The position numbers and the translations under genes are program-made. Below are positions 22,268-48,899 of a stretch of DNA of 64,000 nucleotides, in pieces. Every line of letters starts with the position of its first letter. The stretch's first letter is position 1. This DNA comes from a virus (Duplodnaviria > Caudoviricetes). Below the pieces are notes generated by a model. It saw nothing but the letters and a program-made list of their open reading frames with translations. It was not told the DNA's origin and did not search any database. The stretch is taken from IMG/VR virus record IMGVR_UViG_3300032218_003007, positions 37,647 to 101,646 of that record, one strand, 5' to 3'.

Positions 22268-23221
22268 TCAGCTTGCTGTTTCTTCTGATTGATATGACCG
22301 TGGAAACTTGTTTTTTATTTTTTCGATTTCAGAATCGACATCATAGTCAGAAAAACTTTGTATTTCTTGAGTTTTTTGATGCATGGCTTGTGTGATTTGT
22401 TTTAACAATCCTGGAAACAACTCAGCAAATTTTTGGTCTGACTGAGTTAAGCTTGAACTGGTTTGCAGAGCATTTTTCATTTGGTTACTGGGCGCATGCA
22501 GTTGCCATTTGCCGTTAACATCGTTTGAATTGTTTTTATCTATGATGCTGATCAACACCCCTTCTGGTGCATATCTGCTGAACCACGTTTCTCCAGAACT
22601 GCTGCCAGTGCAGAAACTGGCTTGAATTCCCATTGAATTATTAAAATAATAGCAAGATCCAAAATTCAGTGGCAACACAACCAAAAATCTGTCATTGTCT
22701 ATCAATACTATTTCTTTTTTGTTTTTCTTGGCAGCTTTTATTTTTTCTTGGTTTCTTATTTTTTTTAGTGCTTCGCTATAATTGCTGTCGCGAAGCTTAT
22801 CTCGTATAGACCTTATATCTTTAAATTTGTTCAGATCTTGGTGAGCAGGAATTAATAGATTTCTGACTTTCAAAACTTTCCACATGCCTAATACATCAGC
22901 TTCACCAGAAATATCTTCATAATCGATAGCAAATTGAATATAACGATTAAATAACCATTCTTCAAAATATCTGCCAGCACTCATGTCACCGTAATCAGTG
23001 TTGACAAGAGCTTTGTCAATCATTTCTCGCCAGGCTAACAATGAATTTTTTGCACTTGATTTTCCCTTGCTTACTAATAAAGCTCTTGAATTTAGTGGAA
23101 TCGATGTATCGTTACGAAATGCTATTTCAAAAGCTTTTAGTTTAGGATCTTTGTCATCTGTATTTTGGGATAATAGTTGATCAACTATTCTAGATTCAAA
23201 CAAAAATTCATATGCTTTCAT
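22268..23221 (-). CDS. Putative internal head protein with PcfJ-like C-terminal domain
   Basis: Leader MKAYEFLFE; VVLPLNFGSC...ASFCTG...FSRY..EGVL...KWQLH pattern. Confidence 0.55.
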   Translation of the reverse strand: MKAYEFLFESRIVDQLLSQNTDDKDPKLKAFEIAFRNDTSIPLNSRALLVSKGKSSAKNSLLAWREMIDKALVNTDYGDMSAGRYFEEWLFNRYIQFAIDYEDISGEADVLGMWKVLKVRNLLIPAHQDLNKFKDIRSIRDKLRDSNYSEALKKIRNQEKIKAAKKNKKEIVLIDNDRFLVVLPLNFGSCYYFNNSMGIQASFCTGSSSGETWFSRYAPEGVLISIIDKNNSNDVNGKWQLHAPSNQMKNALQTSSSLTQSDQKFAELFPGLLKQITQAMHQKTQEIQSFSDYDVDSEIEKIKNKFPRSYQSEETAS

Positions 23222-23233
23222 AAGCGCAGATTC

Positions 23234-24385
23234 CTAAGCTGTCATTAATGCTGACTGTTTGAAAAAATATAAAACAGTGGAAAGTTTTTGCATATCGCCT
23301 TTTCGTATGTCTGAAAAAAGTCGATCAACGTAGTCATGGTTAATTCCCTGAGTTAACTCACGCCAATTATGTTTGTCGTAAACAATTTGCGAAAATTCCA
23401 CGTCGGGATCTCGTGAGTCAGGATAATGATGGTAGGTAGCCAATAACACAGCGTATTTAATCATCTTATCTAAGCTATTGCCAACTTTTTCTGCATCAGT
23501 TTCGGAGTCTAAATATTCTATCAAATCATTTATATCACTTAGTTTGCGAATTTTGTTACTAACGTTGCGATATGCATCGTTTTTTACCATGATGTTGATG
23601 GAATTTTTAAGCTCACCTTTTGCAGATTCTAAAGTTCGCCGCCAAATTGGTTTAAATCGTTCCAACAACCAAGAAAAAGAAACGTTTTCAGATGTATTGT
23701 CTTTTTTGGCATTCTTTCTAGCTTTGAATTTATCAAAGGAAGCAGAATACTGCGCTGCAATATATACGTCTTTCTTTTTGATGTTGCCCAAGGTATGTTT
23801 TAAGCGATCTAGAAAATTCTTTTTACCTGTTGTTTTAAAAAAAACTATGTCATCTATATCGTCCGCAGGGAATAATAGTTCACCTTTGTTAGTTCTACGA
23901 TCAAAAGTAGCATAAATTTTACGTGTGGGATCATTTGGTAGCCAATAATTGACAAATTGCCCAGTATCACTCCAACTGTACTCCCATCTGGGGTTATTGG
24001 TTGTGTTTATCAAAATAAATAATTCTTTCAGCAAATTATCAAAATTAGAGGCTGATGTTGTTTTAATTATGGTTTCTGCATCACTGCGGGGATTGGTATA
24101 CCATACATGATAGACTGTATCTGCAGGGTGCGATCCAAACTGGGGAGTCTTTGCCGCTATACCAGCAACACCTTTTTCAAATTCAATTAAAAGCAATGAA
24201 TTGTTTGGAATACTTGATTTAATATCGTATTGTGTGAAATCTGCGTCATGCAGTATAACATTATTTTTATGCAGATGTTGTATAATCTCGATTGCCTTAG
24301 GTGATTTGGAAAAAAACTCCATAGGCTTGCTGTATTCAACAAGTGTGCTTTCAATTAATTGTATATGTCGTCTTATATCGCTCAT
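23234..24385 (-). CDS. Putative internal head protein, unknown function
   Basis: 383 aa, leader MSDIRRHIQLIESTLVE. Confidence 0.6.
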   Translation of the reverse strand: MSDIRRHIQLIESTLVEYSKPMEFFSKSPKAIEIIQHLHKNNVILHDADFTQYDIKSSIPNNSLLLIEFEKGVAGIAAKTPQFGSHPADTVYHVWYTNPRSDAETIIKTTSASNFDNLLKELFILINTTNNPRWEYSWSDTGQFVNYWLPNDPTRKIYATFDRRTNKGELLFPADDIDDIVFFKTTGKKNFLDRLKHTLGNIKKKDVYIAAQYSASFDKFKARKNAKKDNTSENVSFSWLLERFKPIWRRTLESAKGELKNSINIMVKNDAYRNVSNKIRKLSDINDLIEYLDSETDAEKVGNSLDKMIKYAVLLATYHHYPDSRDPDVEFSQIVYDKHNWRELTQGINHDYVDRLFSDIRKGDMQKLSTVLYFFKQSALMTA

Positions 24386-24391
24386 AATCTT

Positions 24392-25171
24392 TTATTTATC
24401 TTCCAAAAGATCTTTTATTGCCGACATACTGGTGAAACGTATCAGCAAACAAGGGTCGCCAACCCAACATTCATTGTCTGAATAATATTGGCGGGTTGCA
24501 GCAAATTCGCTCGTGCTTAGTAGTTCCCAATGGGCTCGCTGCGGAGACAAAGCGTGATATAAGTACTGGTAAAAGTATTTTGGATTTAAGCCAAATTTTT
24601 TACAGTAGTTTTCTGCTTCTGGTGTTAAAACTTCTTGTGCAACATCTCCAGCACTTAAATTCAAATAATCTTCGAGCCAATTATTGAATGCCTGCATGCT
24701 GGTATAACCATAAAAATGAAGATTGGGGTCAACAGTAATTGGCGTTCGCCATATATCATTTTGTGGACAAATTCCAATCTTGCTGCCATTAAATGGAATA
24801 ACGGCATAAGTATCACCAGAACTTTTTTTCCCGATAGGATCAGCAAATCCTTGGGCGTAATCAAAGCCGGCCGAGCAAATTAGGCTTTTACTGCGACGAG
24901 GATACTCTTTCATATATGGACTATTATCCAGCAGAACAGTATAATGGTTGGTAGTGTTTTGACTGATTCTTGATCCGGAACTTGGATATACAATTCTGTA
25001 ATCCCCAAAATCAGTCATGCCACGATACAATGTTTTTTCACCTTTTTGTTGAACCAGCGGTAAAAAATCACTGCACTTGGTTTTTAAAATTTCCACAGCC
25101 TGATCTTGTGATAAATCTTTGTGCTGATAGGCTTGTACGCCAGCCTCAATGATGAATTCTTGATATCTCAT
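24392..25171 (-). CDS. Putative internal head protein, ADP-ribosyltransferase-like (paralogue 1)
   Basis: Leader MRYQEFIIE; LYRGM / KSLICS / NECWV in R-S-E arrangement. Confidence 0.55.
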   Translation of the reverse strand: MRYQEFIIEAGVQAYQHKDLSQDQAVEILKTKCSDFLPLVQQKGEKTLYRGMTDFGDYRIVYPSSGSRISQNTTNHYTVLLDNSPYMKEYPRRSKSLICSAGFDYAQGFADPIGKKSSGDTYAVIPFNGSKIGICPQNDIWRTPITVDPNLHFYGYTSMQAFNNWLEDYLNLSAGDVAQEVLTPEAENYCKKFGLNPKYFYQYLYHALSPQRAHWELLSTSEFAATRQYYSDNECWVGDPCLLIRFTSMSAIKDLLEDK

Positions 25172-25172
25172 T

Positions 25173-26480
25173 TCAATAAACTAAATTAAGTTTTTCAAAT
25201 ATCAAAGGCAACACTTTATCACGATAAAAAGTGTAATCAACACGATAATAATATAAACTACTTTCGTTGTTTGGTGGATAAATCATGATTTCATTGTGTG
25301 ATAAAATTGCTTCAGATAAAAGACCGGAGTTTTTGCTAGAACCGTATTCATAATCTGCTTTGTTATATAAATCGTCGATAAATTCAAAAGCTGTATCCAG
25401 GTCATTGTTGTTTCTAGCCATAGTCTCTATATAAGCTGGTATTTTACCGTATAAATCTCTGATTTTTGGACTATAACAAAACTTAAATCCATTCATTGGA
25501 AAAATCACACTCAATTTTCCATATTCAGTAGCGTCCAGCGCGTCGCCGGTGCAAAACATGCCGTATCTAAAAGGTAACCCACTGTCTGCACTGTGATTAA
25601 GATTCATTCTTTGATTAAGTAGCTCTGGGGTATCTGTACTTCCCTGCTCAATTTTTTTCTGACGGTTACCGATATCATATCTTGTAAGTGAAAAATTTGG
25701 TGTGCTGCGTTTGCTACCTCGATACAAATTTAATCTGGTATCTTTCTTAAATATTGACATCATATCACTGCAATTTTTAAACAACTCACGTATAAAGATC
25801 GACAGATCATCTTCTTTTGTTAAATTTGATGCAGCTTCATCAATGTAAGGTAAGCGAACATTTTTATTCTTTTCAGGATCAAATGGCTTGACTTCTTTTT
25901 TCTTGGTCGCGCCTCGCCAACCACGTTCCCATGCTGCAGCACCTGCAGCAGCACTTTTACCCTGCTTAATAAAATGAGCGATTACTTCTTGCTTGCTGTT
26001 AAAGCCTTCTGAAATATCTTTGTTGGAAAAGCGAGGATTATAAAAATTGCCTTCTATGTACCAATCTAAATATTGATATCCTTGTTCATAGTTATCTCTG
26101 ACATCGCTGACAATTACGTTATATCCAAGATCGTCTAAAAACAGTTGAACTTCGCGTATCAACCACTCTTTAGATTGCTGATTCCAGTTCATTACTTGCC
26201 CTACATCAAAGTCATTCCAATCCTCGCCAATGATACCGGCTAGCTGAACGTCTGTATACCATCTACCATTTTTGTCATTGTTGCCATCGCCATCTACCGC
26301 AAATTCATATAAACTTTCTGGATATATTTCACGAGATTCTTTGTGCTTCTTTCGACCAGCACAATGAGCTTTTTGGCTGAAACCTTTTGGATGACTGCAA
26401 TCAATACTGCGTTTGTATTTTTTGCTCCATTTTTCACTCACTCGGCTAGTTTCTTCGTTGAGTATTTCGTTTATTTTCAT
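25173..26480 (-). CDS. Modular putative internal head protein with C-terminal ART-like domain
   Basis: Leader MKINEILNE; KWSKKYKRSIDCSHPKGFSQKAHCAGRKK micro-module; LYRGS / GMFCT / HNEIMI. Confidence 0.55.
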   Translation of the reverse strand: MKINEILNEETSRVSEKWSKKYKRSIDCSHPKGFSQKAHCAGRKKHKESREIYPESLYEFAVDGDGNNDKNGRWYTDVQLAGIIGEDWNDFDVGQVMNWNQQSKEWLIREVQLFLDDLGYNVIVSDVRDNYEQGYQYLDWYIEGNFYNPRFSNKDISEGFNSKQEVIAHFIKQGKSAAAGAAAWERGWRGATKKKEVKPFDPEKNKNVRLPYIDEAASNLTKEDDLSIFIRELFKNCSDMMSIFKKDTRLNLYRGSKRSTPNFSLTRYDIGNRQKKIEQGSTDTPELLNQRMNLNHSADSGLPFRYGMFCTGDALDATEYGKLSVIFPMNGFKFCYSPKIRDLYGKIPAYIETMARNNNDLDTAFEFIDDLYNKADYEYGSSKNSGLLSEAILSHNEIMIYPPNNESSLYYYRVDYTFYRDKVLPLIFEKLNLVY

Positions 26481-26537
26481 TTTATTTTATGCCTATTTAA
26501 CTTTTTTGTGTAAAACATATGAAACAGCTATGAATCA

Positions 26538-27278
26538 TCATATCTTTTTGATCACTTCATTCAGCATATCACGTCGGATTAATAACACTTTTCCGCCTAC
26601 CCAACATTCTCTACGATCTAATAACTCACGGTTAGCTGCAAATGCAGCAGTTGAAAACAAGTTGAATCCTGTGTGTTCTGGTGACATTCGTTGATCTATT
26701 ATGTCATAAAATTGATCCGGATTGACACCATTATCTACACATAGAGATCGCAATGTGTCTGGTATTTTTCTTTCTGATACGTCTTTTTCACTGAGTTTAA
26801 AATGTCGTCTAAAATACAGATCGATGTCTTCAAAAGAACAAACTTCTCCTCCCGCCAGGGGAAGATTTCTTATCACGGTGAACCAAATATCACTATACGG
26901 ACAGACTCCAATTTTTTGCCCATCGAACGGTACCAATGCATATATAGTTCCATAATCTCCAGCATAACTTTTATCAGTCGTACAAATTAAACTTTTACTA
27001 CGTGCTGGATATTCACGAAAATAAGGACTGTTATCCATCAATATGGTATAGTAATTTTTAGTATTAGTACTTTTTCTAACACCAGTGCTGGGATCTATAA
27101 CCAAAAACGCACCTCGGTTGGTCATGCCCCGAAACAATGTGTCTCTGCTCTTAACCAGTTTTAATGAATCTTTGCAGTTGTTTTTTAATATTTCTACAGC
27201 TTCGTCACTAGACCAGTCTCGAACTTGAATTTCGTATGGTTTGACTGCTGTTTCCGTGATGATCTCTTTTGCTTTCAT
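26538..27278 (-). CDS. Putative internal head protein, ADP-ribosyltransferase-like (paralogue 2)
   Basis: Leader MKAKEIITE; clear paralogue of 24392-25171 (DNSPY..EYP.RSKSLIC, KIG.CP..DIW, ECWVG). Confidence 0.55.
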   Translation of the reverse strand: MKAKEIITETAVKPYEIQVRDWSSDEAVEILKNNCKDSLKLVKSRDTLFRGMTNRGAFLVIDPSTGVRKSTNTKNYYTILMDNSPYFREYPARSKSLICTTDKSYAGDYGTIYALVPFDGQKIGVCPYSDIWFTVIRNLPLAGGEVCSFEDIDLYFRRHFKLSEKDVSERKIPDTLRSLCVDNGVNPDQFYDIIDQRMSPEHTGFNLFSTAAFAANRELLDRRECWVGGKVLLIRRDMLNEVIKKI

Positions 27279-27288
27279 TGATGTTAGC

Positions 27289-30200
27289 CTAGTTTCCCGC
27301 GTATGCTTGGTAATTTGCTTGTCTACTATCTACTCCCCGCATTGCTGGATTGATCTGTTTGGTAACCTGAGATGTGTCACTAAAATCACTTACATTTGGT
27401 CTAACTCTGCTTTTCCAATAATAAATTGCTGCATATCCGCCGATCATGGGATCAGCCATTAATGTAGGATAACGCAATAAAAAATCCGGGTGATCGCCGC
27501 CAGGCAATGATTCTAAAAATTCAGGATCTTCATTTTCAAATTTATTGAAAAGATACTGACTGGCGTTCTGATAATTTTCTCTGCCTGTTATTTGCAATGG
27601 CCCGCGCCCTATAAATTTAGCAGCATCTTTTCTATTTTTATTACCCAAACTTGTTTTTTTAGCATAAGAAGCAGCTAATTTCTTTATTGCACCTATTTCA
27701 TGCATCTTTTGAAAATTAGCTGTTTCATGCTTGCACTGGGCTAGAAACTGTGCTAATTCTTCTCCTCTTAAACCTTCGTTTACGGCAATAGAATACAATA
27801 TTTTTTCAGACTCGTGTTGAGTTTGAAGTTTTATTTGCGGCTTATGTTTTTTAATTGCTTTTTGTTGTGCAATGTTTTGTGCTGGTGCTGGTTGCACTTG
27901 CTGTGTAACAGCTGGTCTTTCGGTCGGTTCTTTGTGTATATCTGGTGCTGGTAGTTTAGTCATGCCGGCAGCAATAGCTGCACTAGCAGCAACACCCAGT
28001 GCTGTCTTTCTCCAGTCTTCTTCTAAACTTTCATAAACCCCAATATAATTTTCAAATTCATCAGGATCCCCAGATACCTGGTAAAATTCTACGTCATTTG
28101 GTTCAAACTTAATATCTGGTATTTTTTGCCAGCTAAATCCACCGCCGGTCTCGTATATATGATATGGTATATCGATACTGTAAACACCTTCTTCAAATTT
28201 TGCACCAACGTATACATGTTGTTCCATGGAGCAACTTACAGTAGCACATTCAATTCCCATTGAACCTAACACATCACAAATTTCATCTGCTAATAAGTGA
28301 CATATGCCACCGCCTGCATATGTATCGCGATCTGCCTCATCCCAATCATCATATACTCTTTGAACTTTTTCAAGAATTCTTGGCATTGCTGATTTAGCGG
28401 TATTCACAGAAGGCAATGATTCATTTTGTTCATCAAAATTTTCTGGAACATATTCAATATCATAGCCTTGATCATTATCACCATAAGTGCCGGGTGTATC
28501 TCTGAACCCATGTTTTAGATACCATTGTCTAAGTCTTTTGCTGCTAGCTATGTATTTCTTTTTTTCAGTATGATATGCTTTGGCTAAACCTTCAATGCCA
28601 ACACCATGCTTGTTGGCTAAGCCTATTATAAACTTTAGTCCGCGTGTGCCAGCACCTGATCGAGGATTTAACGAACGTATATCAGCTAAATGTATGTTGG
28701 ATCCATATGGACTTAGTTCAATAGAAACCTCGTCATTGTAAATTCTTTCTTTACTAGAAAAAGGATGAGAGTTGGTTTGCTCATAGTATTCATCCATAAA
28801 AGCATCAGTGTTTTTAGAACTTTTTCCTGACAGCTTGATTTCATCTAGTCGAGCTGATCTATTTTTGGCATCAATTGCCATCCATTTATCTTTCAAATAA
28901 TGATAAAGTTCTTTGACTGAAGAAATCTTGTGTTTCATCATGAACTTGTTGATCTTGACCACTTCTGGGTATTCTCTACTGGCTGGCTTACGAGAGTTAT
29001 GCATATCATTTTCTAAGCCTTTGTGCGCATCACTATACTGACTATGATAAATCAGGTTATAACGCAGTGTTTCGGCGCCAGCACTAAGCCTTGATTTTTG
29101 ATCTTGGTGCATGAGTTCTAACCATTGACCAAGATGATCGTACCTTGATTTTCGCCAAGTCTTGGTAGGTTCTATTGAACCTGACAGTGCTGATTTTATT
29201 TCTGACGGGTTAACAGCTCGGCGTTTATCTTGTAACAACCAGGCTTGGCTAGTAGTATATAAAAAAACTGGTATATTTTGTTGTTTGGCTAATATCAAAC
29301 AATGTCTTACTCTTACACGATGTCGTTCATCTGCACTTTTATCATCTGGCTTAATGAATAAATGCAGTTCGCGAACCATGGTTAACGGCAAAGTATTGGT
29401 TCGAGAAAAGATTCGATCTTCACTTTCACTGGTTCGTCCTGATGACGACTGTAGCCACATACGGTCCCAATAATCAACTGGTTTAGTTTTGACACCGTGT
29501 GTGTTAAGCCAATCTCCATCTAGCACAAACATAGCAGCAGAATACGGTGTATAACGATGATAATCGCCTACCTTGCTTCTGGTGGTGCTCAAAAAGAATG
29601 GGCGGCCTTTGGGTGCTAAACCAGCTTCGACTCCAGTGCCAGTCGATGAAGATAGTTCAAATTCTTGATCTTTGAGTATTTGTTCAGCAGCCCACACACT
29701 GGTATAGTGAAACAGCACTGATGTGGCTGCTTCTGTTATAAATTCGTTGCGTTCTGCTTGATCTTCTCGTACTAATGATGCTAAAAATTCACTTTGACCC
29801 TGTGGAAAACTTTCAAAGTTTTCATCTAAAGTTTTTTTATTTTTTAATGCGTCTTTAAGATATCTTTTGCCATCTTTGGTAACGTACCATTGACCTTCAT
29901 AATCTACAATATAACCATTGGAACTCAAACTATCAAGCACATTATCAGCTTCAGCAGTACGTGATTCATCTTCTACATAATCCATGCCTAACTTTGTTGC
30001 AGTTAGTATCCCGTGCAAGAACAAAATCTTTCCTAGTCCTTGGTTACGAAACTCTGGATAAATTTCAGCTATGCTGCGACCTGATTCTGAATCGTACTGG
30101 AATACTCCGGCTGCCACACCATTTACAAACATCTCTGTTCCAAAATAATCACGGGAAATATTTTTACGTACTTTGAACGATATTTCGGTGTTACCTAGTT

Positions 30201-32070: not shown

Positions 32071-32082
32071 ATGCTGTATTTC

Positions 32083-32718
32083 TCAATTTGGTTCTCGAAA
32101 GTTTTTTGCACCAGCAATAATATTATCAATAATTGCTTTGTCTTTTGGAGTTAGTTTATTGCTATTGTCTAGAATCTTTTTGACTTCTTGTTCAGAGTTA
32201 GCCCATGTTATAATATCTTTAATACGTTCTATTGCGTTTTTAGTTTTGCTACTGATAATATCATGGATCGCTGCTGCTTGTTGGTCAGTGATATCTACCT
32301 GAGGTGCAATCATGTTGCGAAGAATACTGGTCGTGCTGACACTGATACTAGGTCCATGACGGTTAGAATATGGCGCTAATAAAAACTTGCCGACCTTAGC
32401 GTATGTTTTAACAGATTCTCTATTATATGGATCTTTGGTGTGAACTAGTTGTGCTCGTTGTTTAATGTCTTGCCATGCATCATCTCTATCTTCTAGATTG
32501 TCGAAGTGCACGTTCCACTCTGGATCATAGTATGCGCCGCCTCTGCTCATTGTCCACTTAGTACGATGAAAGCTGCGGTTCGTCCACGCATTTAATCCGT
32601 GAAAATACTGCGCTAGATTTTTTGCAAACACTCCCGTGGTGACTTTATTTCCAGACGGAAAAACGGCTAGTTTATCTGATGATTCACTTTCTTCAGATAT
32701 AATTTCAAAAATCTTCAT
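32083..32718 (-). CDS. Putative internal head protein, unknown function
   Basis: Leader MKIFEIISE; AGGAG RBS. Confidence 0.6.
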   Translation of the reverse strand: MKIFEIISEESESSDKLAVFPSGNKVTTGVFAKNLAQYFHGLNAWTNRSFHRTKWTMSRGGAYYDPEWNVHFDNLEDRDDAWQDIKQRAQLVHTKDPYNRESVKTYAKVGKFLLAPYSNRHGPSISVSTTSILRNMIAPQVDITDQQAAAIHDIISSKTKNAIERIKDIITWANSEQEVKKILDNSNKLTPKDKAIIDNIIAGAKNFREPN

Positions 32719-32751
32719 TGCACACAGCTCCTTTGTATTACTTATACTTGA

Positions 32752-33240
32752 TTATTTGAGAAAAGTATCAGCAATGCGCTTGCATAATTCGCGAAGTTTT
32801 TCATCAGCAGTTTCGTTTACTTCAAAATGTCGTTCAGCATAATCATCACTGTCATCTTGCGTTGGATCAGAATAGCCGCAATATACCTGAGCAATGCCTA
32901 CTTCGTGCATTAAATCTGTGCAACTAGCACCTAATCTGTCAGGCATGTGTTTGCTGCATGGACTGAGTGTGGTGATCATGACTGACCCTGGTGGTACACG
33001 ACCGTGTTTGGTTTGATATCTTTGTACAGCAGCACGCTCAGCGTGCACTCGACGCTTGCTGCGTACATGATTGATGGCATAAACCTCTTGCCCCTCGGGG
33101 TCGATTAAACAAGCAGCTACCATGCCGTAATGATCAGGATCTTTATCCTGACCGCGTTCAATCATTTTACAAAGTTTTTTCAGAACTCGATCATAGTATG
33201 TAAAGTCCTGTGATGTATAACTGAAATGACTGGCACGCAT
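32752..33240 (-). CDS. Zn-dependent deaminase (CDA/RibD-like)
   Basis: VHAERAA, TTLSPC-x11-C, GIAQVYCG..DP. Confidence 0.85.
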   Translation of the reverse strand: MRASHFSYTSQDFTYYDRVLKKLCKMIERGQDKDPDHYGMVAACLIDPEGQEVYAINHVRSKRRVHAERAAVQRYQTKHGRVPPGSVMITTLSPCSKHMPDRLGASCTDLMHEVGIAQVYCGYSDPTQDDSDDYAERHFEVNETADEKLRELCKRIADTFLK

Positions 33241-33241
33241 T

Positions 33242-33679
33242 TTAGTCTTTCAGAGTAGCACGCAACTGCCAAGCATGCTTTTTAAATGCGTCTAGCCTTT
33301 CTGCAAGAAAATTACTGAATCCGTGTTCACCCTCGCGTTCAGCAATATCATAGACCATCTTTAATACTTTAGACATTTTTTCTGCATCTGCCAGCAGAAT
33401 TTCAATCATTTCTTTTGCTGGCACTTCATATACTTGATCCTCAATGCGACTCAGCATATTGAAACGACTGTTTGATCCTGGAGCGTAGGCATCTAGTGAG
33501 CGAATCTTTTCTGCAAACTCGTCAACACTGTCCAGTACTTCTTGATAAATTGTGCCAAACAAACTGTGTAGTTCTTGAAAGTGTATGCCTTCTACGTTCC
33601 AATGAAATTCATGAGCTTTCAAGTAAAATGTAAACTGACTGGCGAATGCGATTTTTGCTGCTTTGATTAGTTCTTCCAT
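33242..33679 (-). CDS. dps: Dps / ferritin-like protein
   Basis: KAHEFHWNVEG..FQELHSLF...DEFAEKIR, KHAWQL. Start MEELIK after a GGAG RBS. Confidence 0.93.
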   Translation of the reverse strand: MEELIKAAKIAFASQFTFYLKAHEFHWNVEGIHFQELHSLFGTIYQEVLDSVDEFAEKIRSLDAYAPGSNSRFNMLSRIEDQVYEVPAKEMIEILLADAEKMSKVLKMVYDIAEREGEHGFSNFLAERLDAFKKHAWQLRATLKD

Positions 33680-33680
33680 G

Positions 33681-35210
33681 TTATACTCCGTATCCTGCAT
33701 CACGCATTTCGCGTAGATATGCTGCTATTTCTTGATCTGTTATTTGGCTTTCGTTGGCGTGTTTGAAATATTGTACTTCACGTTCATGTTTTTCAGCACC
33801 GGCTCTGCTGTCAAATGTGCCTAGATTCTTGCCTTTGCTGCTGTAAAGGCGATATTTGTTATCACCAATCTTGCGAATAGTTTCGCTGAGATCAAAATCA
33901 GGTGGTACATAACGACCGCCATGTTGTTCGATATGATCTTGCAAAACGTCAATATTTTCAAATCCACGTTCTTGTAGTTCTTGTTCTATGCTGGACATAT
34001 CGATTGATTCTCGGTCAGCCCAATCACGAATAAATTTGTCTGCATTTTCGCCAATTCTCACTGCTATTATCACAGCGCCAACTATTTGATCCCATTTTAT
34101 ATCCTGCATTTCAATGTCCATGTCGCTCATGACACTTTCGTTTTTCTTGGTAGCAACATTAATAGCTTTGCCACGACGCTCTGGATTAGGATCTTGTTTA
34201 CGCTTGCGACGAGCAGCACTGGCACGACCTTTCTTGCCTAGTGCGTGTGCCTTGCTTTGTGGCAAACATTTTGGTTTTCCTTCACTGTCTTTGCCTCGGG
34301 CACAATCACCTTTTATCTTGCCATCAGGCCCAAATCGAACCCATTTTTCTTTGAACCACTTTTTTAAATCTTCGTCAAGTTGTTCATCTTCGTCGATGCT
34401 TTCAGATTTGTTCCCCCAATTCTTGGCACCTTTTTTTCGACATTTTACTAGTGCGCCTGAAGCATAAGCACTTGGCCAAACCTTGTAACGACTCTTGACT
34501 TTATAATAGCAAGCATCTTTTTTTTCGTCTATGCGATCTTCACTAACCATCTCGCCACCACAATGCGGACATTTTGATTCATCTAGATTGCCTTCCAAGC
34601 GACGAACAACATCAGTGACATAAGTGTCCAATCTATTCATATCAATGCCGCCGCGATCCAAGATATAGTCCGTGACATCCATGATCGCATCCATTATATC
34701 GTCATTGCCATAACGACGAATCAATTCTGGATGTTCATCTTCTATGCGATCTATTAATGCAAGTGTAAGATATTCTTCTTTTGATGATTCTTGTACAGAG
34801 ACTTTTTTAGTTTCTGTCACACCTTTATTCATCGTAGACTGAACCCATGGAATAAATGTTTTTTGGATCCACTCCTGGTGCTGCTTGCTTTTATCCAATG
34901 TGCTAGTATCAGCTATTCTGCCATTGACCATAACAGGTTTAATATTGTTCACAGCATCTGTGATTTTCTTTTGAATATCAGGACTAGCTGACTTGATTAC
35001 TGTTCGTAGTTGTGCAGCTGCTTCATTTTGTCTTCCTTGCATTGCCAATACTGCTACTCGATGTAGATTACTAATAACAGGATCATACATACTGGCAAAC
35101 GCTTTAGTTATATCATCTGCTGCACTTTCAGTTATCTTCCTGCGACGGCGTTCCCACAAACGCTTGCCTGCGTCTGCCATGTCATCTGAAAAAAGTTCAT
35201 TTATATTCAT
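33681..35210 (-). CDS. Modular putative internal head protein (string of micro-domains)
   Basis: Leader MNINELF; modules KKDACYYKVKSRYKVWPSAYASGALVKCRK, DLKKWFKEKWV...PKCLP and TIRKIGDNKYRLYSSKGKNLGTF, each preceded by (I/L)-X-E. Confidence 0.65.
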   Translation of the reverse strand: MNINELFSDDMADAGKRLWERRRRKITESAADDITKAFASMYDPVISNLHRVAVLAMQGRQNEAAAQLRTVIKSASPDIQKKITDAVNNIKPVMVNGRIADTSTLDKSKQHQEWIQKTFIPWVQSTMNKGVTETKKVSVQESSKEEYLTLALIDRIEDEHPELIRRYGNDDIMDAIMDVTDYILDRGGIDMNRLDTYVTDVVRRLEGNLDESKCPHCGGEMVSEDRIDEKKDACYYKVKSRYKVWPSAYASGALVKCRKKGAKNWGNKSESIDEDEQLDEDLKKWFKEKWVRFGPDGKIKGDCARGKDSEGKPKCLPQSKAHALGKKGRASAARRKRKQDPNPERRGKAINVATKKNESVMSDMDIEMQDIKWDQIVGAVIIAVRIGENADKFIRDWADRESIDMSSIEQELQERGFENIDVLQDHIEQHGGRYVPPDFDLSETIRKIGDNKYRLYSSKGKNLGTFDSRAGAEKHEREVQYFKHANESQITDQEIAAYLREMRDAGYGV

Positions 35211-36547
35211 TATTTCTGTCCTGCAGTTCTTTGTGATTGCTGTTGCTGCACGCTTGGGTTTGTGCCAGGTTTTTGTGCCTGTGTTTGCTTGGCTAATTGT
35301 TGTTGTTGTGCTTGATTCATTGTGCCGGCTTTGTTCATAAGCTGTTTGAACTGACCAGCAGTGCCGGGATTTTTAAGTATATTAGCCAATGGGCCAGCAA
35401 ACTGTGCCATCTGACCAGCCTCTGCTGCACCTAGCTTGGTTGATGGATTTGCGTCTACTTTGGTCAATGCACCAACTGCTTTTTGTGCATTGAGATCTGT
35501 GCCGCCCTGGCTAGCAACAGCAGGCTTTACTGCTTGTAAAGTTTTAGTCATAGTCTTTAGATCTTTCTGTGCTTGTTGTTGCTTGGGATCATTTTGTGAT
35601 CCTGTGGTTCCTTGAGGACTTTGTGGAGCTGAGCCATAGCCACTTACGCCACCATATTCATTTAAAAAATCACGATATTCTTGCATCAGACTGCGAGCAG
35701 ATTTTGATTTTGGGTGTTGTAGTGTTTGTTCAAGCTCTTTTAATATACTCTCACCAGCGCCAACTAAACGACCTTGAAATGGATGTTTTCCGCTTTTATT
35801 AGGCTTGGCTTTTTCAGTGCCGCGAACTTGATCGCCAGGTTTTTGTTTTGGATTAGCAAATGAAAATTTAGATTCATCCATATCACTCAGATCTATCTGA
35901 AGATCAAATTCTACATCGTGTGACAGTTTCTTGCTAACTAAACCGTAGAATGAATATGCTTTAGATGCAGAGTTTTTGTCAGCGAATAGTTTTGTCATGT
36001 TCCAAGTCTGTGCTAGATGAAAGACATCATGATTGTCTGAATCTGGATATTTGCTGCCATCTGCAAACTCTAATTGTTGAACTGAATCTTTATTTGATAT
36101 TTTCACTATTTCTTTTGGTGCTAAAAAACCATTCAATCTTGCAATTACTTTATGACCAGGGACATTTAATGTTGATAATTGTAATAATGCAACCTTATCG
36201 CCTATAGCAGCAGAACTAACAGTATTATCAGATCGATCTGAAAATTCATCAAACAACTGTTGTTCTAGATATGATGGATTTTTGACATGAGTTTTTTGTT
36301 CAGTAATGCTGCGACGATAAACACCAAATAGATCAAGTGTATTGGCCCATTGCGGTAAATTTAAATTTTTTGTAAGATTTTTATGAAACTTGCTGTAATC
36401 AGAGCCAGCAGACTCTGACAATACATCCAAATCTGAATACGATAATCCTTGTAACCTAGGCTGTTGGTCACTATACATTAAACTGCTGGTTTCAGCAGAC
36501 AATTGATATTTTGTTACTGCTTCCAGCAGCCTACGCATGTCAGTCAT
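35210..36547 (-). CDS. Modular putative internal head protein, Gln-rich C-terminus
   Basis: Leader MTDMRRLLE; internal LSE, MDE and LNE junctions. Confidence 0.6.
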   Translation of the reverse strand: MTDMRRLLEAVTKYQLSAETSSLMYSDQQPRLQGLSYSDLDVLSESAGSDYSKFHKNLTKNLNLPQWANTLDLFGVYRRSITEQKTHVKNPSYLEQQLFDEFSDRSDNTVSSAAIGDKVALLQLSTLNVPGHKVIARLNGFLAPKEIVKISNKDSVQQLEFADGSKYPDSDNHDVFHLAQTWNMTKLFADKNSASKAYSFYGLVSKKLSHDVEFDLQIDLSDMDESKFSFANPKQKPGDQVRGTEKAKPNKSGKHPFQGRLVGAGESILKELEQTLQHPKSKSARSLMQEYRDFLNEYGGVSGYGSAPQSPQGTTGSQNDPKQQQAQKDLKTMTKTLQAVKPAVASQGGTDLNAQKAVGALTKVDANPSTKLGAAEAGQMAQFAGPLANILKNPGTAGQFKQLMNKAGTMNQAQQQQLAKQTQAQKPGTNPSVQQQQSQRTAGQK

Positions 36548-37272
36548 TTGCGTCGAATAACCTTGTTTTTAGGCTTTTTGCCTAGTGCATCTTTAAAAGG
36601 ATTATCATTTTGTCCAAAAGATCCGCCAAATAATGTACCAACCTTGTTCTTTGGACGATTCATTTGACCCATGCTGCTGGCGATTGCACCACTCATGGTT
36701 TCGTTGAACACGGATTCATCAGCAATCTTATACTTTTTAGAAGTTTTTGGATCTTTTACAAAGCGATTAAATGCACTTTTCTTAAGAAAAGGGTCAACAG
36801 GAAAATCTGATCTTGGGTCATATTGCTTGTAGCCACGAGGCTTCTTCGGCAGCACATCATCTAGCGATACGTATAGATCTTTTGGATCTACAGGTTTATT
36901 GCTTGCTGGTATTTTTTTCGACCTCGATCCTTCTGTCACATCATCTTTGCCTATTAGTTCATTGAATCTTTGTTCAGCTTCAGCCAGTTCAAATATTTCG
37001 TGCTCCGGTTCTTCGTGGGCATGATTCATATTATGTTCCATGTATTCGTGAACTGTGCGCAGATAATCACAGGCTAGTGTGAGCTTTTCTTGTACCCAGC
37101 CATCCAATCCTTCAAATTCGCTGACTTGTTCCAGCATCTTGTGAAGTTCGACGGCATATTTTGCTGCACTATAGCAGTCACCACGCGCCATTTGAACTTC
37201 GTGATCGCGATGCATGCGTTCTGCATCTTCTCCGATGCCTCTGTATTCTACGATAGTTTTTTTCTTGCTCAT
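36544..37272 (-). CDS. Putative internal head protein
   Basis: MSKKKTIVE leader; helical EVQMAR...LDGWVQEKLTLACDYL domain; ATAAATA at 37299-37305. Confidence 0.6.
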   Translation of the reverse strand: MSKKKTIVEYRGIGEDAERMHRDHEVQMARGDCYSAAKYAVELHKMLEQVSEFEGLDGWVQEKLTLACDYLRTVHEYMEHNMNHAHEEPEHEIFELAEAEQRFNELIGKDDVTEGSRSKKIPASNKPVDPKDLYVSLDDVLPKKPRGYKQYDPRSDFPVDPFLKKSAFNRFVKDPKTSKKYKIADESVFNETMSGAIASSMGQMNRPKNKVGTLFGGSFGQNDNPFKDALGKKPKNKVIRRK

Positions 37273-37308
37273 ATAATGATTCCTGATAACTGTTTATATA
37301 TTTATTGA

Positions 37309-38916
37309 TTACATCACTAACACTTTGCCAACCATGTCAACCAACACCTCATTGAAATAATAATCCATATCTCGTGCTAATGTTTCTGTGAGTCTTGAAC
37401 TATACTCAGCTGATTCTGGATTAAATCTCATGCCTTTGGTTGGCTTTCCCCATGCTTTTTTGCCATAGTAAATTACATCTGGCAATGGATTCAGCGTTAC
37501 ATGGCCTGTTTTGATGTACTGGGCAAACATTTCATACATAAACTCATATGGTCTGCGAATCTGATTCATACGACTGCTGCGTTGTGTGCCAATCGCATTG
37601 AACAATGCAGCATATTCAGTGTATTTTTCTAATCTAAAATGTTTTCCATCTGAACCTGGTGTAATTTGCTGTTTATAATCTGTTGACAATATTTGGTTTA
37701 TGTTCTTAAAAAAATGATTTTCAGCTTCTCGCCATGATTGTCCTGCTGCTTGTAAACTAGAATAAACTGAAGTTGTTGCCCTGCAAGCATGTCCTATGCG
37801 GTGTGCCATAATCCAGGGTGTCATGGCCACAGGATCTGCGCCCGTATTGCCTACAAAGACCACGGTTATTGCATCTTCGTGATCTGCTAGTATTTGATCT
37901 GCTTGTTTTGGAAATATTTTACGCAGCTTTTGTTCAGAAACTGCACCTATTTCACTATGCTTGCCTGTGCCTGATACATTGGCAAAGAACAATCTAAAGT
38001 CATGAGGTGTCTTTTCAAAGAACTTTATAGTTTTAAGTTTGCTGACTGGATGAGCAACTAGTTTTTTGTTTGCACCACGGAATGGGCCTGGCTTGTCAAA
38101 ATCACCGATCAGGTCATAACTCTTGACTGCCATTTCATCTAGATCATCAGCACTTTCTAGATGGAACTTGTCGAGTTGTTTTCTCAGAGTTCCTGGGCGA
38201 ACATCTCGCGTCAAACTCATGCTGTAACGTGGATCATTTTTCTGTCTGCTTGTGGCGATTTGTCCTACGCCAGCTGCTTCTTCAGTGAGTCCTCCTAGGA
38301 TACTATCTAAACGAGCAGATAACTTGCTTATCAATGCAGGTTTTTTGTTTAATACTGGATAAAGATCAGTCAAAAGTCCTGCTTTGTCATCAGGACTCAT
38401 ATTGGGCCACATTTCGCGAATTTGACTAGCGCTGGTTATGCCTGATTTGCCTGCTTTAAATTGTACGGTCGGTAGATAGTCGATATAAGCATGTTTAGCA
38501 GAAGGCTGAAGTTTATCATTGTATGGCTGCAGATACGAAGCACTGCCATCTTTTTTAACTCCACCTGGTTTTGGTTGTTCATCTCGATCTTTTTCACTGC
38601 GAACAAACACAACAGCAGTACTATAAGGATCATAATTGTCAACGATTTCTTTAGCTTGAAATGGGCTCTTTACCTGCACAAAGCGATCTGCTGGAATTCC
38701 TGCTAATTGGGCCAGTTGTCTCTTCATTTCAAATGGAAATGGACGCTCTTTGCGATCATCTGTTGATGCTAGATAGATATCAGCATTGGGAAACTTTTGT
38801 TTGGCAGCATTATAAAGACTTAAATGACCAGGATGAAAAGGATGATAACCACCAGGTAGTATTACTACTAGCTTTTGTGCTACATCAGATGATTCAAAAA
38901 GTTCGGCAATAAACAT
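37309..38916 (-). CDS. HxGH nucleotidyltransferase (cytidylyltransferase/NMNAT-like) fused to a zincin-like domain
   Basis: Leader MFIAELFE; PGGYHPFHPGH, SASQIR; C-terminal WIMAHRIGH...EMFAQY. Confidence 0.75.
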   Translation of the reverse strand: MFIAELFESSDVAQKLVVILPGGYHPFHPGHLSLYNAAKQKFPNADIYLASTDDRKERPFPFEMKRQLAQLAGIPADRFVQVKSPFQAKEIVDNYDPYSTAVVFVRSEKDRDEQPKPGGVKKDGSASYLQPYNDKLQPSAKHAYIDYLPTVQFKAGKSGITSASQIREMWPNMSPDDKAGLLTDLYPVLNKKPALISKLSARLDSILGGLTEEAAGVGQIATSRQKNDPRYSMSLTRDVRPGTLRKQLDKFHLESADDLDEMAVKSYDLIGDFDKPGPFRGANKKLVAHPVSKLKTIKFFEKTPHDFRLFFANVSGTGKHSEIGAVSEQKLRKIFPKQADQILADHEDAITVVFVGNTGADPVAMTPWIMAHRIGHACRATTSVYSSLQAAGQSWREAENHFFKNINQILSTDYKQQITPGSDGKHFRLEKYTEYAALFNAIGTQRSSRMNQIRRPYEFMYEMFAQYIKTGHVTLNPLPDVIYYGKKAWGKPTKGMRFNPESAEYSSRLTETLARDMDYYFNEVLVDMVGKVLVM

Positions 38917-38938: not shown

Positions 38939-38945
38939 TATTTAT
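38939..38945 (-). promoter_or_regulatory. T4 gp55-type late promoter heading the cargo island
   Basis: ATAAATA. The same motif precedes the endolysin (48926-48932), baseplate gene (62220-62226), clpA (43190-43196), 55627 (55652-55658), 8560 and the homing endonuclease. Confidence 0.7.
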
Positions 38946-38983
38946 CTAATTATCACTTATATATGGTTCAAGTATTGAACATA

Positions 38984-39010
38984 AAGAAAGGCTGTCTAGC
39001 AGCCTTTCTT
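38984..39010 (-). terminator. Rho-independent terminator separating the island from upstream genes
   Basis: aagaaaggctg-tctag-cagcctttctt, a perfect 11-bp stem with U-rich end. Confidence 0.75.
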
Positions 39011-48272: not shown

Positions 48273-48899
48273 TTATCCTTGTAAAATCTGAAGTGCATGA
48301 TGATAGTGTTTCATACGATCTTCAAGACCTAAAGTTCCACCATTAATTTTTTTAGTAAGTGTAACCATGTCACCGTTATCTGCAAGAGCGTTAAGATTGT
48401 TACTTTCCCAAAACCAGCAAGCACTCTGTATTGCACCTTCAAATGTTCCGAGATATTCTGGCACTTCGTCGATGCTTATTTCAAGACTATCTGCAAATGC
48501 TTGATAATTGTCGTGTCCTGTGAGTTGAATTAATCCTCTTCCACAAAATTTGTATCCATCACCCGAGGCTTCATCGCCGTTACCCATGCGATTTGCATAA
48601 GCACGATTAGCAATAGCTTGTTGATTATGTGCATAACGATTTGCTGTTTCTAAATCTGGAAACAACCGTGGCCAAACTTTAACTAAACTTTGTGCTTTAT
48701 AATTAAGATTTTCTTTTAATGCAGTAAAACCAGCACTTTCATGAATAGTTTGTGCTAGAAACGCTGATACACGCGGAATAGTATTAATATCATAGTCAGG
48801 CAATACAAGTGATAAGGCCTCATGCCAGTGATCAATATATGGATTGCGTGGAAGAATTTTCTGTAGCTTAGCTACAGTGAAATCGAAATCAAACGACAT
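48273..48899 (-). CDS. GH19 endolysin
   Basis: FLAQTIHESAGF..ENLNY, GRGLIQLTGHDNY, TKKINGG; late promoter upstream. Confidence 0.93.
   Translation of the reverse strand: MSFDFDFTVAKLQKILPRNPYIDHWHEALSLVLPDYDINTIPRVSAFLAQTIHESAGFTALKENLNYKAQSLVKVWPRLFPDLETANRYAHNQQAIANRAYANRMGNGDEASGDGYKFCGRGLIQLTGHDNYQAFADSLEISIDEVPEYLGTFEGAIQSACWFWESNNLNALADNGDMVTLTKKINGGTLGLEDRMKHYHHALQILQG

Follow-up and report, generated by a model that had tools for sequence, protein, structure and literature searches.

The window analysed here, 64,000 nucleotides long, comes from an uncultured jumbo phage whose replication core is of the T4 type. It belongs to a 101.6-kb contig, which represents only about 29% of the genome. 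Positions 22268–38916 contain 13 minus-strand ORFs, spaced by 1–57 nt or slightly overlapping, in agreement with the tightly packed, co-directional block of the original prediction. In the following list, h is a hydrophobic residue and ART is ADP-ribosyltransferase.

38984–39010, minus strand: terminator-like hairpin (fold energy), following the upstream glycosyltransferase-like gene
38939–38946, minus strand: GATAAATA box, predicted to be late-promoter-like, 29 nt upstream of the first island ATG
37309–38916, minus strand: 535-aa protein, cytidylyltransferase-like N-terminal part (PF01467 at cut-off); shortened leader
36544–37272, minus strand: 242-aa protein; weak leader, h-x-E at residues 7–9; ATAAATA 33 nt upstream
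35210–36547, minus strand: 445-aa protein, Gln/Pro-rich tail; weak leader, L-L-E at residues 7–9
33681–35210, minus strand: 509-aa basic protein, DUF5872; leader-like start with terminal Asp
33242–33703, minus strand: 153-aa Dps/ferritin-like protein (PF00210 at 7e-23; phrog_3636); no leader
32752–33240, minus strand: 162-aa cytidine/deoxycytidylate deaminase-fold protein (PF00383 at 3e-11); no leader
32083–32718, minus strand: 211-aa protein; strict leader
27289–32070, minus strand: 1593-aa polyvalent protein (profile and fold searches); no N-terminal leader
26538–27278, minus strand: 246-aa ART-like protein (AF2 model, pLDDT 85); strict leader
25173–26480, minus strand: 435-aa protein, C-terminal half in the wider ART-like superfamily; strict leader
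24392–25171, minus strand: 259-aa ART-like protein, paralogue of the 246-aa protein; strict leader
23234–24385, minus strand: 383-aa protein; weak 12-residue leader
22268–23221, minus strand: 317-aa protein with 759 homologues; strict leader

The terminator proposed upstream of the block corresponds to a strong hairpin (39010–38984; −19.7 kcal/mol, z = −6.3, equalled by 0 of 200 shuffles in the folding computation), but its T run is imperfect and it is absent from the list produced by the terminator consensus scan. The proposed late promoter was likewise borne out in part. ATAAATA is a genuine signal on the contig: 14 of its 24 copies sit on the coding strand no more than 60 nt ahead of a gene start (binomial p = 2e-16), in most cases 28–33 nt from the ATG. 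Downstream of them are, among others, genes for proteins of the baseplate wedge, for virion structural and tail-fibre-like proteins and for endolysin. The box at the island start, GATAAATA, however, differs from the consensus known in T4, and the window has a single copy of TATAAATA. The box preceding the block is a putative late-type promoter.

Every N-terminal leader quoted in the original prediction is present in the sequence. A strict leader pattern (Met, 1–4 residues, E/Q, F/I/L, F/I/L/V, x, E) is found in 5 of the 13 island genes and in 0 of the 81 other contig genes (Fisher p = 2e-5), each time in the form M-K/R-x-x-E-h-h-x-E. As a DNA pattern, the leader matches only those five starts on the contig, with 0 matches for the reversed control. 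The 535-aa protein possesses a shortened form. The 383-, 445- and 242-aa proteins satisfy only a loose rule, hydrophobic-x-E finishing at residues 6–13; these are weak calls, since the rule also fits 15 of the 81 genes elsewhere. The leader of the 509-aa protein terminates in Asp instead of Glu. The 1593-aa protein, the deaminase and the Dps/ferritin-like protein lack an N-terminal leader, which counts against a capsid-targeting reading. At least six island proteins, and probably nine or ten, bear the leader. The nine-residue consensus is M-K/R-x-x-E/Q-hydrophobic-hydrophobic-x-E, with Ala, Ser or Thr as the usual next residue; in the AF2 model of the 246-aa protein, residues 1–12 are disordered and the leader lies outside the fold. 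The predicted likeness to the T4 tag is confirmed by the T4 record, where IPII/IPIII, gp24, gp22 and Alt have N-termini of the same string type; the island leader nearest to the IPII/IPIII tag is that of the 259-aa protein. In T4, the first 10 residues target the protein and gp21 cuts (PMC9026906; PMC3012670), and Asp at the end position of the leader prevents cutting while leaving targeting unaffected (PMC9026906).

The protein bodies, described originally as unrelated, are so only in part: the 246- and 259-aa paralogues share 41% identity, and the C-terminal half of the 435-aa protein, which matches Atu_ph07 gp054, gp057 and gp060–063, belongs to the same wider family. The top fold matches of the 246-aa protein are mostly ART folds, every one with Z ≤ 6, which counts against a firm ART assignment of this family; its invariant residues are E9, R50-G51, S94, S96 and E224. 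At least three ART-like proteins of the R-S-E type are part of the island cargo. As for the rest of the anticipated payload, NUDIX, ParB_N and a GH19-type lysozyme were recovered by profiles, the ART-like label is supported by fold, HAD is weak, the nucleotidyltransferase (cytidylyltransferase-like) match is at cut-off, and profile searches detected no GNAT among the island proteins. The 535-aa protein has 28% identity to nucleotidyltransferase regions in two phages. Cytidine deaminase and ferritin/Dps are confirmed by profiles in addition to that list, and profile searches gave no family for the 211- and 383-aa proteins. Residues 220–268 of the 509-aa protein are 65–92% identical to T4-like cyanophage proteins, one of them annotated as structural. 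The deaminase gene call in a relative begins 25 codons further downstream; the stop TGA of the 211-aa gene is in frame with the following gene, 4 codons ahead of its start. In L004, the orthologue of the 242-aa protein is longer and contains inserted segments, and that of the 445-aa protein has about 220 residues fewer.

The largest payload carrier (NUDIX, HAD, ParB, lysozyme) is the 1593-aa protein, which is untagged at its N-terminus. Its domain order is an N-terminal domain, ParB_N, NUDIX, HAD-like, a variable module, a DarT/Tpt1-like ART, unknown modules and GH19 lysozyme. Residues 1–149 are 41% identical to the stand-alone RsoM2USA ORF385, on which a leader is present. Three internal features are relevant here.

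29749–30186, minus strand: 146-aa module, residues 629–774, missing from a 97% identical orthologue
29731–29745, minus strand: internal leader remnant E-F-I-T-E, residues 776–780, immediately N-terminal to the ART domain and without Met
29221–29739, minus strand: DarT/Tpt1-like ADP-ribosyltransferase-fold domain, residues 778 to ~950 (AF2 model, pLDDT 86.5)

The ART domain resembles Tpt1 (VIA Z 10.9, 2.3 Å over 112 residues) and DarT (VIA Z 8.6–9.5), and nearly all of its Foldseek matches have the ART fold. Among stand-alone homologues of this DarT-like domain, 90 of 96 start with a leader, typically Met-Arg-Ala plus E-F-I-T-E, after which the domain opens with the same residues as here. In the 97% identical orthologue, the flanks of the 146-aa module are fused directly, and another module of about 146 aa is found further downstream, bordered by a repeated F-D-E-Q-N-E-S linker; module swaps between such ~97% identical phages fall at leader-like or h-x-E linker joints. 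One joint of the protein is a former leader, and it is at such joints that modules are exchanged. Leader-like and h-x-E sites are not enriched within the protein (1.3 vs 1.1 and 21 vs 17 per 1000 residues), which counts against a capsid-targeting reading. Scans of the protein against Pfam and PHROG revealed neither a peptidase nor a MuF/portal-type domain.

Others have shown in a relative, Atu_ph07, that homologues bearing the leader are associated with virions; the virion proteome of this phage comprises 131 of 714 gene products (PMC6102473 Table S5). A scan of that genome with its own leader variant gave 25 matches, compared with 2 in the control; 21 are annotated gene starts. Nineteen of these 21 genes are in the published proteome (Fisher p = 5e-13 against 131/714 overall), as are 7 of 9 genes outside the pattern design (p = 9e-5), although the virions were PEG-purified and the 131-protein list includes likely contaminants, so that detection does not prove a position inside the head. 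Two leader genes, gp664 and the gene of the NUDIX protein gp397, are absent from the proteome, which counts against a capsid-targeting reading. Peptidase_S77 scores above cut-off in Atu_ph07, RsoM2USA, SCTP-2 and Slicko01, all of which encode leader-bearing proteins. Head context in relatives also favours the capsid-targeting reading: the ART-like homologues of RsoM2USA directly follow head and neck genes, ahead of the tail-sheath stabiliser gene, and in PA5oct a near-identical leader is present on gp333, a structural protein confirmed by mass spectrometry and encoded between portal and head protease. The block itself adjoins replication genes (dsbA-like, DNA polymerase) and not head genes, and neither head genes nor an S77 protease were found on the 101.6-kb contig; both observations count against a capsid-targeting reading, and the protease of the window's own phage is consequently unseen.

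The leader could also target the prohead on proteins that form the core or scaffold of a very large head and are later degraded or left behind, rather than being delivered to the host. T4 gp22, gp67, gp68 and gp24 have the same kind of leader. PA5oct gp333, with its near-identical leader, occupies the place of the T4 core genes. That scaffold and core proteins of T4 and PA5oct carry this leader type, yet are degraded and not delivered, counts against delivery of the island proteins; the low-complexity or basic 445- and 509-aa proteins also resemble core or DNA-associated proteins. This explanation is nevertheless unlikely: the enzyme folds of several cargo proteins (ART-like, together with the NUDIX and lysozyme domains of the polyprotein beside them) are typical of host-directed effectors, a packaged ART has a precedent in T4 Alt, and the Atu_ph07 homologues are present in finished virions with 30–46% coverage.

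The leader is conserved far beyond the protein bodies and is common to unrelated families. The ART-like family has 3868 cluster representatives; among the best 152, h-x-E ends within the first 14 residues in 137 and Glu is at position 9 in 75. In the 317-aa family, 92 of the best 120 of 759 homologues have Glu at residue 9 after the leader. In three unrelated island families, most of the metagenomic relatives preserve a Glu at or close to position 9; identical leader variants are found on differing families, and fused homologues retain the leader at domain joints. It is very unlikely that this N-terminus merely reflects the birth of genes by duplication and recombination, as a conserved 5′ cassette at which segments are joined and which has no part in sorting. 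Such an origin would fit the tandem leader of P0001, the 30-nt indel, equal to one additional leader unit, in an orthologue at 93% identity, the modules swapped at repeated linkers and the mutual relatedness of three island proteins. However, thousands of relatives with less than 50% identity, from the three unrelated families, retain the hydrophobic pair and the Glu at position 9, and the leader predicts virion presence in Atu_ph07. Each phage, moreover, has its own leader variant common to its families, which suggests a common partner within that phage. The extra leader unit and the module swaps are direct signs of the plug-and-play character originally proposed for the locus. That the leader serves to be recognised by another machine, such as a modifying enzyme or an export route, is highly improbable, as no maturase gene is conserved beside leader genes (window, L002, Atu_ph07, Slicko01) and the tag is too weakly hydrophobic for Sec export. 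It also fits the rule by which T4 gp21 cuts, and S77 proteases occur alongside it.

The core of the original idea, a T4-type capsid-targeting island, is supported by the leader logic, the Atu_ph07 proteomics and the S77 proteases of four relatives, but with only six strong leaders the island is not a set of 13 tagged genes. Taken as a whole, it is probable that 22268–38916 is a variable cargo locus of a jumbo phage, with the leader as a T4-type capsid-targeting tag on exchangeable cargo, an explanation that is well supported, but only indirectly. Given a T4-style head-loading tag on otherwise unrelated proteins, the block most likely encodes enzymes, several of them ADP-ribosyltransferase-like, that travel inside the virus particle. 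The block would be transcribed late; the leader would attach each protein to the scaffolding core during prohead formation, and a gp21-type (S77) head protease would then remove it after Glu. The mature protein would remain in the head alongside the DNA and may be ejected into the host for takeover or anti-defence.

The underlying principle is already known from the T4 capsid-targeting sequence (CTS) and from polyvalent proteins. The P1 Dar system (DarA, DarB, DdrA, DdrB, Hdf) likewise has head-packaged proteins, one of them ParB-like. Its loading follows an ordered protein–protein hierarchy, and we know of no common short N-terminal tag among its proteins. They are anti-restriction proteins, and the ParB-like DdrB is described as processed prior to packaging (PMC5512222).

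The phiKZ-like phages and SPN3US are also giant phages with many head-loaded proteins, whose propeptides are removed by gp175/gp245. These propeptides are long, and in their motif x-Glu is preceded by a small residue, whereas the island leader is short and of T4 type. A gp21-related protease cleaves their ejection or inner-body proteins after Glu (PMC9026906 Fig. 3 legend).

The 1593-aa chain, which joins ParB-like, NUDIX, ART and lysozyme domains, resembles the polyvalent proteins (Iyer et al. 2017, PMC5512222) and the packaged ART/Nudix/Macro myovirus proteins (Iyer et al. 2022, PMC9503650), for which delivery with the DNA has been proposed. In the sections of these two papers drawn on here, the deduction of packaging relies on fusions and gene neighbourhood rather than on an N-terminal tag, and a Zn-metallopeptidase (MPTase) is proposed for self-processing; the likely processing sites in the 1593-aa protein would instead be head-protease motifs inherited from leaders.

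T4 IPI, IPII, IPIII and Alt share with the island proteins a leader of about 10 residues whose residue pattern is the same and closes with hydrophobic-x-Glu. In both phages it heads unrelated proteins, the locus varies and the cargo includes an ART. The S77 protease encoded by relatives of the window phage corresponds to T4 gp21. In contrast to T4, the window system has a leader remnant within a polyprotein. The lineage is that of jumbo phages, the DNA polymerase being 45–51% identical to those of Phosso, PA5oct and Atu_ph07, and the cargo is more numerous and larger, with several ART-like paralogues in place of small basic internal proteins.

The window covers the right-hand 64 kb of an IMG/VR contig, which is 101.6 kb long and about 29% complete according to CheckV. 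The contig carries baseplate, tail-fibre and replication genes and an endolysin, and its split family-B DNA polymerase is 45–51% identical to those of the jumbo phages Phosso, PA5oct, Atu_ph07 and Vibrio phage 2.275.O; no head genes were found on the 101.6-kb contig. A megablast search of the island against GenBank phages gave zero matches, and the island is therefore without a close cultured relative; contigs of 93–97% identity come from freshwater metagenomes, and the metagenomes 3300027747 and 3300009154 contain relatives of this phage. As originally predicted, the island is filled by 13 tightly packed ORFs on the minus strand, which are separated by 1–57 nt or overlap slightly and are named here by protein length. 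The main features are:

22268–38916, minus strand: island of 13 ORFs
27289–32070, minus strand: 1593-aa multidomain protein of the island (polyprotein)
33681–35210, minus strand: 509-aa protein of the island
48273–48899, minus strand: stand-alone GH19-type endolysin (phrog_181, 3e-76), with an ATAAATA box upstream

The terminator-like hairpin predicted upstream of the island is present (−19.7 kcal/mol, z −6.3); a scan for sigma-70 and terminator consensus sequences was uninformative. The box before the island, GATAAATA, is not the T4 late consensus. The late promoter claimed there is plausible as an ATAAATA signal before structural-gene starts, but not in the exact T4 form, TATAAATA, which occurs once in the window, fewer times than in shuffled sequences, and was replaced by ATAAATA. 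Of 24 copies of ATAAATA, 14 lie at most 60 nt upstream of gene starts, mostly 28–33 nt from the ATG; the genes behind it include baseplate wedge, virion structural, tail-fibre-like, endolysin and three island genes. ATAAATA looks like the late promoter core of this phage, and a late reading of the island box is reasonable because the same motif precedes the structural and endolysin genes. The base before ATAAATA is usually C, G or A, for example at 38939–38946 of the window, in the region of 58234–58241 and in loci L008 and L009.

The leader, a nine-residue N-terminal tag ending in hydrophobic-x-Glu (h-x-E), is real and non-random. A strict pattern (Met, one to four residues, E/Q, F/I/L, F/I/L/V, any residue, E) is found in five island genes and in 0 of the 81 remaining contig genes (p = 2e-5), so the strict leader is not equally common outside the island. 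When searched as a DNA pattern, it matches exactly those five starts, with no match in the reversed control; the 535-aa protein has a form shorter by one residue. A short leader with hydrophobic targeting positions and an (L/I/F)-x-Glu end, as in the capsid-targeting sequence (CTS) of T4, is thus carried by six island proteins. The 317-, 211- and 535-aa proteins and the group of ADP-ribosyltransferase (ART)-like proteins have no detectable mutual similarity outside the leader. The tag had been assigned more widely, but the leaders of the 383-, 445- and 242-aa proteins are weak, since the one rule that they match is loose and fits 19% of the non-island genes too; the leader of the 509-aa protein terminates in Asp, and the 1593-aa protein, the deaminase and the Dps-like protein are without a leader at the N-terminus.

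The 509-aa protein also contains a 45-residue Cys/Lys-rich motif (residues 220–268), which is 65–92% identical in many T4-like cyanophages, including Syn9 gp114 and an S-B68 protein annotated as structural. The conservation of this motif is unusually high given that the proteins otherwise differ.

The same tag is conserved in large protein families. A profile search with the 246/259-aa family yielded 3868 cluster representatives at 50% identity; among the best 152, h-x-E lies within the first 14 residues in 137. Its Glu is residue 9 in 75 proteins, residue 10 in 27 and residue 8 in 15; the residue that follows is most often Ala. In an eight-member alignment of this family, with identity down to 31%, Met1 and Glu9 are invariant, and in the AF2 model of the 246-aa protein residues 1–12 are disordered and lie outside the fold. 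The 317-aa protein has 759 homologues, and 92 of the best 120 have a leader with Glu as residue 9; a protein atlas query with it returned only unnamed viral clusters. Residues 778–1066 of the 1593-aa protein have 216 homologues; 96 of these are stand-alone, and 90 of the 96 begin with a leader immediately before the first residues of the domain. Mutually unrelated proteins share a leader in Atu_ph07, Slicko01, SCTP-2 and L002 as well.

Proteins of different families carry identical leader variants, and the variant used depends on the phage: M-R/K-W-x-Q-L-x-E in Atu_ph07, x-T-F-K-E/Q-F/Y-L-x-E in RsoM2USA, a 13-residue form in Slicko01 and a variant common to the window and PA5oct. Since the variant tracks the phage and not the protein family, these sequences point to a single common partner of the leader in each phage. 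Counts of the general pattern in PA5oct, Phosso and Vibrio phage 2.275.O are close to the control; the leader is therefore not abundant in every relative, or the variants differ there. In Alishewanella phage Slicko01 (141 kb), at least eight consecutive genes (L013, record 85.9–91.6 kb) carry the leader M-K-I-D/E-x-L-Y-E-S-x-L-x-E, and several of them encode DarT-like domains homologous to residues 778–1066 of the polyprotein. Perfect leaders start at internal in-frame Met residues in Atu_ph07 gp407 (L014, 14256–15284; residue 12) and PA5oct gp213 (L028, 4882–5268; residue 6); in both genes the true start probably lies downstream of the annotated one.

The virions of jumbo phages include dozens of proteins with no known role. 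To our knowledge, T4 is the only phage for which the selection of these proteins for packaging is understood, apart from a partial understanding in phiKZ-like phages. A genome-wide scan of Atu_ph07 for its leader as DNA gave 25 matches, compared with two in the control, and 21 of the 25 are annotated gene starts. The published ESI-MS/MS list of virion proteins (PMC6102473 Table S5) includes the products of 19 of these 21 genes, against a background of 131/714 (p = 5e-13), and many of the 19 were detected with 7–31 unique peptides. Leader genes outside the set used for writing the pattern behave similarly (7/9 in the list, p = 9e-5). Because the virions had been purified with PEG and the list is a long one, some of its entries are probably contaminants; it reports no N-terminal peptides (PMC6102473). 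Every one of eleven genes in a row, gp053–063, has the Atu_ph07 leader; the published description of this cluster goes no further than unique structural proteins (PMC6102473), and the tag would account for such arrays. The tag predicts virion presence correctly for nearly all leader genes in the sole relative with virion proteomics. Being readable from sequence, it would single out ‘hypothetical’ genes as candidates, open to testing, for enzymes that are injected to take over the host or counter its defences. In Atu_ph07 gp197, an 87-kDa virion protein whose gene adjoins the portal gene, a leader-pattern match begins at an in-frame internal Met, residue 205 (L017, record 158143), which may mark an internal start or a site of processing.

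The predicted ART-like payload is borne out by one domain of the polyprotein and is less clear for the 246-aa family. Residues 778–950 of the 1593-aa protein, modelled with a pLDDT of 86.5, have an ART fold in the predicted structure, the nearest being Tpt1 (Z 10.9; RMSD 2.3 Å over 112 residues) and DarT (Z 8.6–9.5), with a Foldseek probability of 1.0 for both; His11, Tyr12, Glu105 and Glu107 (domain numbering), candidates for His-type NAD-site residues, are invariant in 26 homologues compared by sequence. About half of the top 50 VIA hits of the 246-aa family model are ART folds, all at Z ≤ 6, including Arr (5.8), diphtheria toxin (5.0), cholix (4.3), PARPs and DarT, and Foldseek found nothing significant for this model in the PDB. 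R50, S94/S96 and E224, candidates for an R-S-E triad, are invariant in the 246/259-aa family, with Ser-x-Ser between the Arg and the Glu. The family is best called ART-like, a putative assignment; the C-terminal half of the 435-aa protein belongs to the same wider family. Tandem copies of the ART-like family are found in Atu_ph07, SCTP-2, RsoM2USA and two uncultured giant phages; the RsoM2USA genes directly follow the head and neck genes, ahead of the tail-sheath stabiliser gene.

The other payload domains claimed for the island were recovered in part. The 1593-aa protein comprises ParB_N, NUDIX and GH19 lysozyme domains besides the ART fold, in line with the claimed NUDIX, ParB-like and muramidase modules, whereas its HAD-like match is weak; the claimed GNAT modules were not detected, as profile searches of residues 618–780 and 1060–1260 gave no GNAT family at E ≤ 1. 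The 1593-aa protein ends in a fused lysozyme of the same type as the endolysin at 48273–48899, and because that separate endolysin exists, the fused copy is a candidate entry lysin.

The polyprotein appears to retain traces of tagged genes. Residues 1–149 match a stand-alone, leader-bearing RsoM2USA protein at 41% identity, and the ART domain is preceded by E-R-N-E-F-I-T-E, the stand-alone leader with its Met-Arg-Ala start replaced. In other fused members of the 246/259-aa and DarT-like families, too, all or part of a leader persists at the joint. Protease motifs at all domain joints of the 1593-aa protein were considered and rejected: leader-like and plain h-x-E sites are not enriched relative to the rest of the contig, and comparative support is confined to residues 776–780 and the swap points. 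Exchange at leaders and linkers is directly visible, since near-identical phages differ there. A 146-aa module of the 1593-aa protein in the window is missing from a relative of about 97% identity, which carries in another place an unlike module of about 146 aa, between repeated F-D-E-Q-N-E-S linkers; the 246-aa gene differs by one extra leader unit (a 30-nt indel), the 445-aa gene by a 220-residue deletion and the 242-aa gene by insertions. This comparison of island content upholds the proposed plug-and-play locus as far as exchange is concerned; protease motifs are not generally enriched within the polyprotein.

The TGA of the leader-bearing 211-aa ORF (32068–32085 of the window, minus strand) is in frame with the 1593-aa ORF, four codons before its ATG; a shared frame has a chance probability of 1 in 3. 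Read-through of this TGA, if it occurs, would put an N-terminal leader on the polyprotein. A tRNA search of the contig for a UGA suppressor joining the two frames found zero tRNAs; Atu_ph07 encodes a UGA-reading suppressor tRNA (PMC6102473 Table S4).

The leader is probably a T4-type head-targeting and processing signal, and its invariant Glu and modelled disorder are indirect signs of the predicted cleavage after that residue. The main rival explanation is that some of the tagged proteins are core or scaffold parts and not effectors. PA5oct gp333 (73 aa, confirmed by mass spectrometry), with a leader near-identical to that of the window, is encoded between the portal and the head protease, the place of core genes 67 and 68 in T4; this placement also gives supporting head context for the leader. 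On the other side, the ART fold and the ART-like proteins suggest enzymes among the cargo. For a targeting and processing leader, delivery of the cargo to the host and its role in takeover or anti-defence would follow by analogy, and ejection into the host with the DNA is conceivable on the model of T4. More tentatively, the leader could be a portable address code of T4-core phages well beyond the T-evens. Copies of it inside polyproteins would then mark the joints where the head protease separates effector modules and where, in DNA, the modules are swapped between phages. On that reading, sequence alone could reveal which proteins thousands of uncultured phages deliver with their virions, among them the very large unannotated ART-like family, with its thousands of cluster representatives. 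The tag would also lend itself to the packaging of foreign proteins in the heads of large phages.

Peptidase_S77, the gp21-type prohead protease family, scores above the Pfam cut-off in T4 and in the leader-using Atu_ph07, RsoM2USA, SCTP-2 and Slicko01. It was not found on the 101.6-kb contig, which is uninformative because this fragment, about 29% of the genome, is without head genes. In the T4 record, IPII and IPIII begin with MKTYQEFIAE, and IPI, Alt, gp24, gp22 and gp67 have related N-terminal strings ending in h-x-Glu. The IPII/IPIII tag has the Y-Q-E-F-I core and the last Glu in common with one island leader, and the gp24 propeptide is close to another. The first 10 residues of IPIII are sufficient for packaging; residues 4 and 7 of the T4 CTS play a part in targeting and residues 8 and 10 in cutting, and T4 relatives bear CTS-like tags on variable proteins (review, PMC9026906). 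Asp at position 10 blocks cutting and keeps targeting (PMC9026906), which bears on the 509-aa protein because its leader ends in Asp.

Polyvalent proteins, as described by Iyer et al. 2017 (PMC5512222), combine disparate activities in one phage chain, as the 1593-aa protein does, and its architecture fits this phage type. That description gives them a Zn-metallopeptidase (MPTase) hub for self-processing; general Pfam and PHROG scans found no peptidase family in the 1593-aa protein. The joints suggest how polyvalent proteins arise from stand-alone cargo genes, and such proteins may be re-cut there. Packaged ART and Nudix proteins in myoviruses were previously proposed on other grounds (PMC9503650). 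The T4 CTS, polyvalent proteins and packaged ARTs were already known; new are the leader's use in this lineage of jumbo phages, how large the tagged ART-like family is, the match between leader and an existing virion proteome, and the leader-derived joints.
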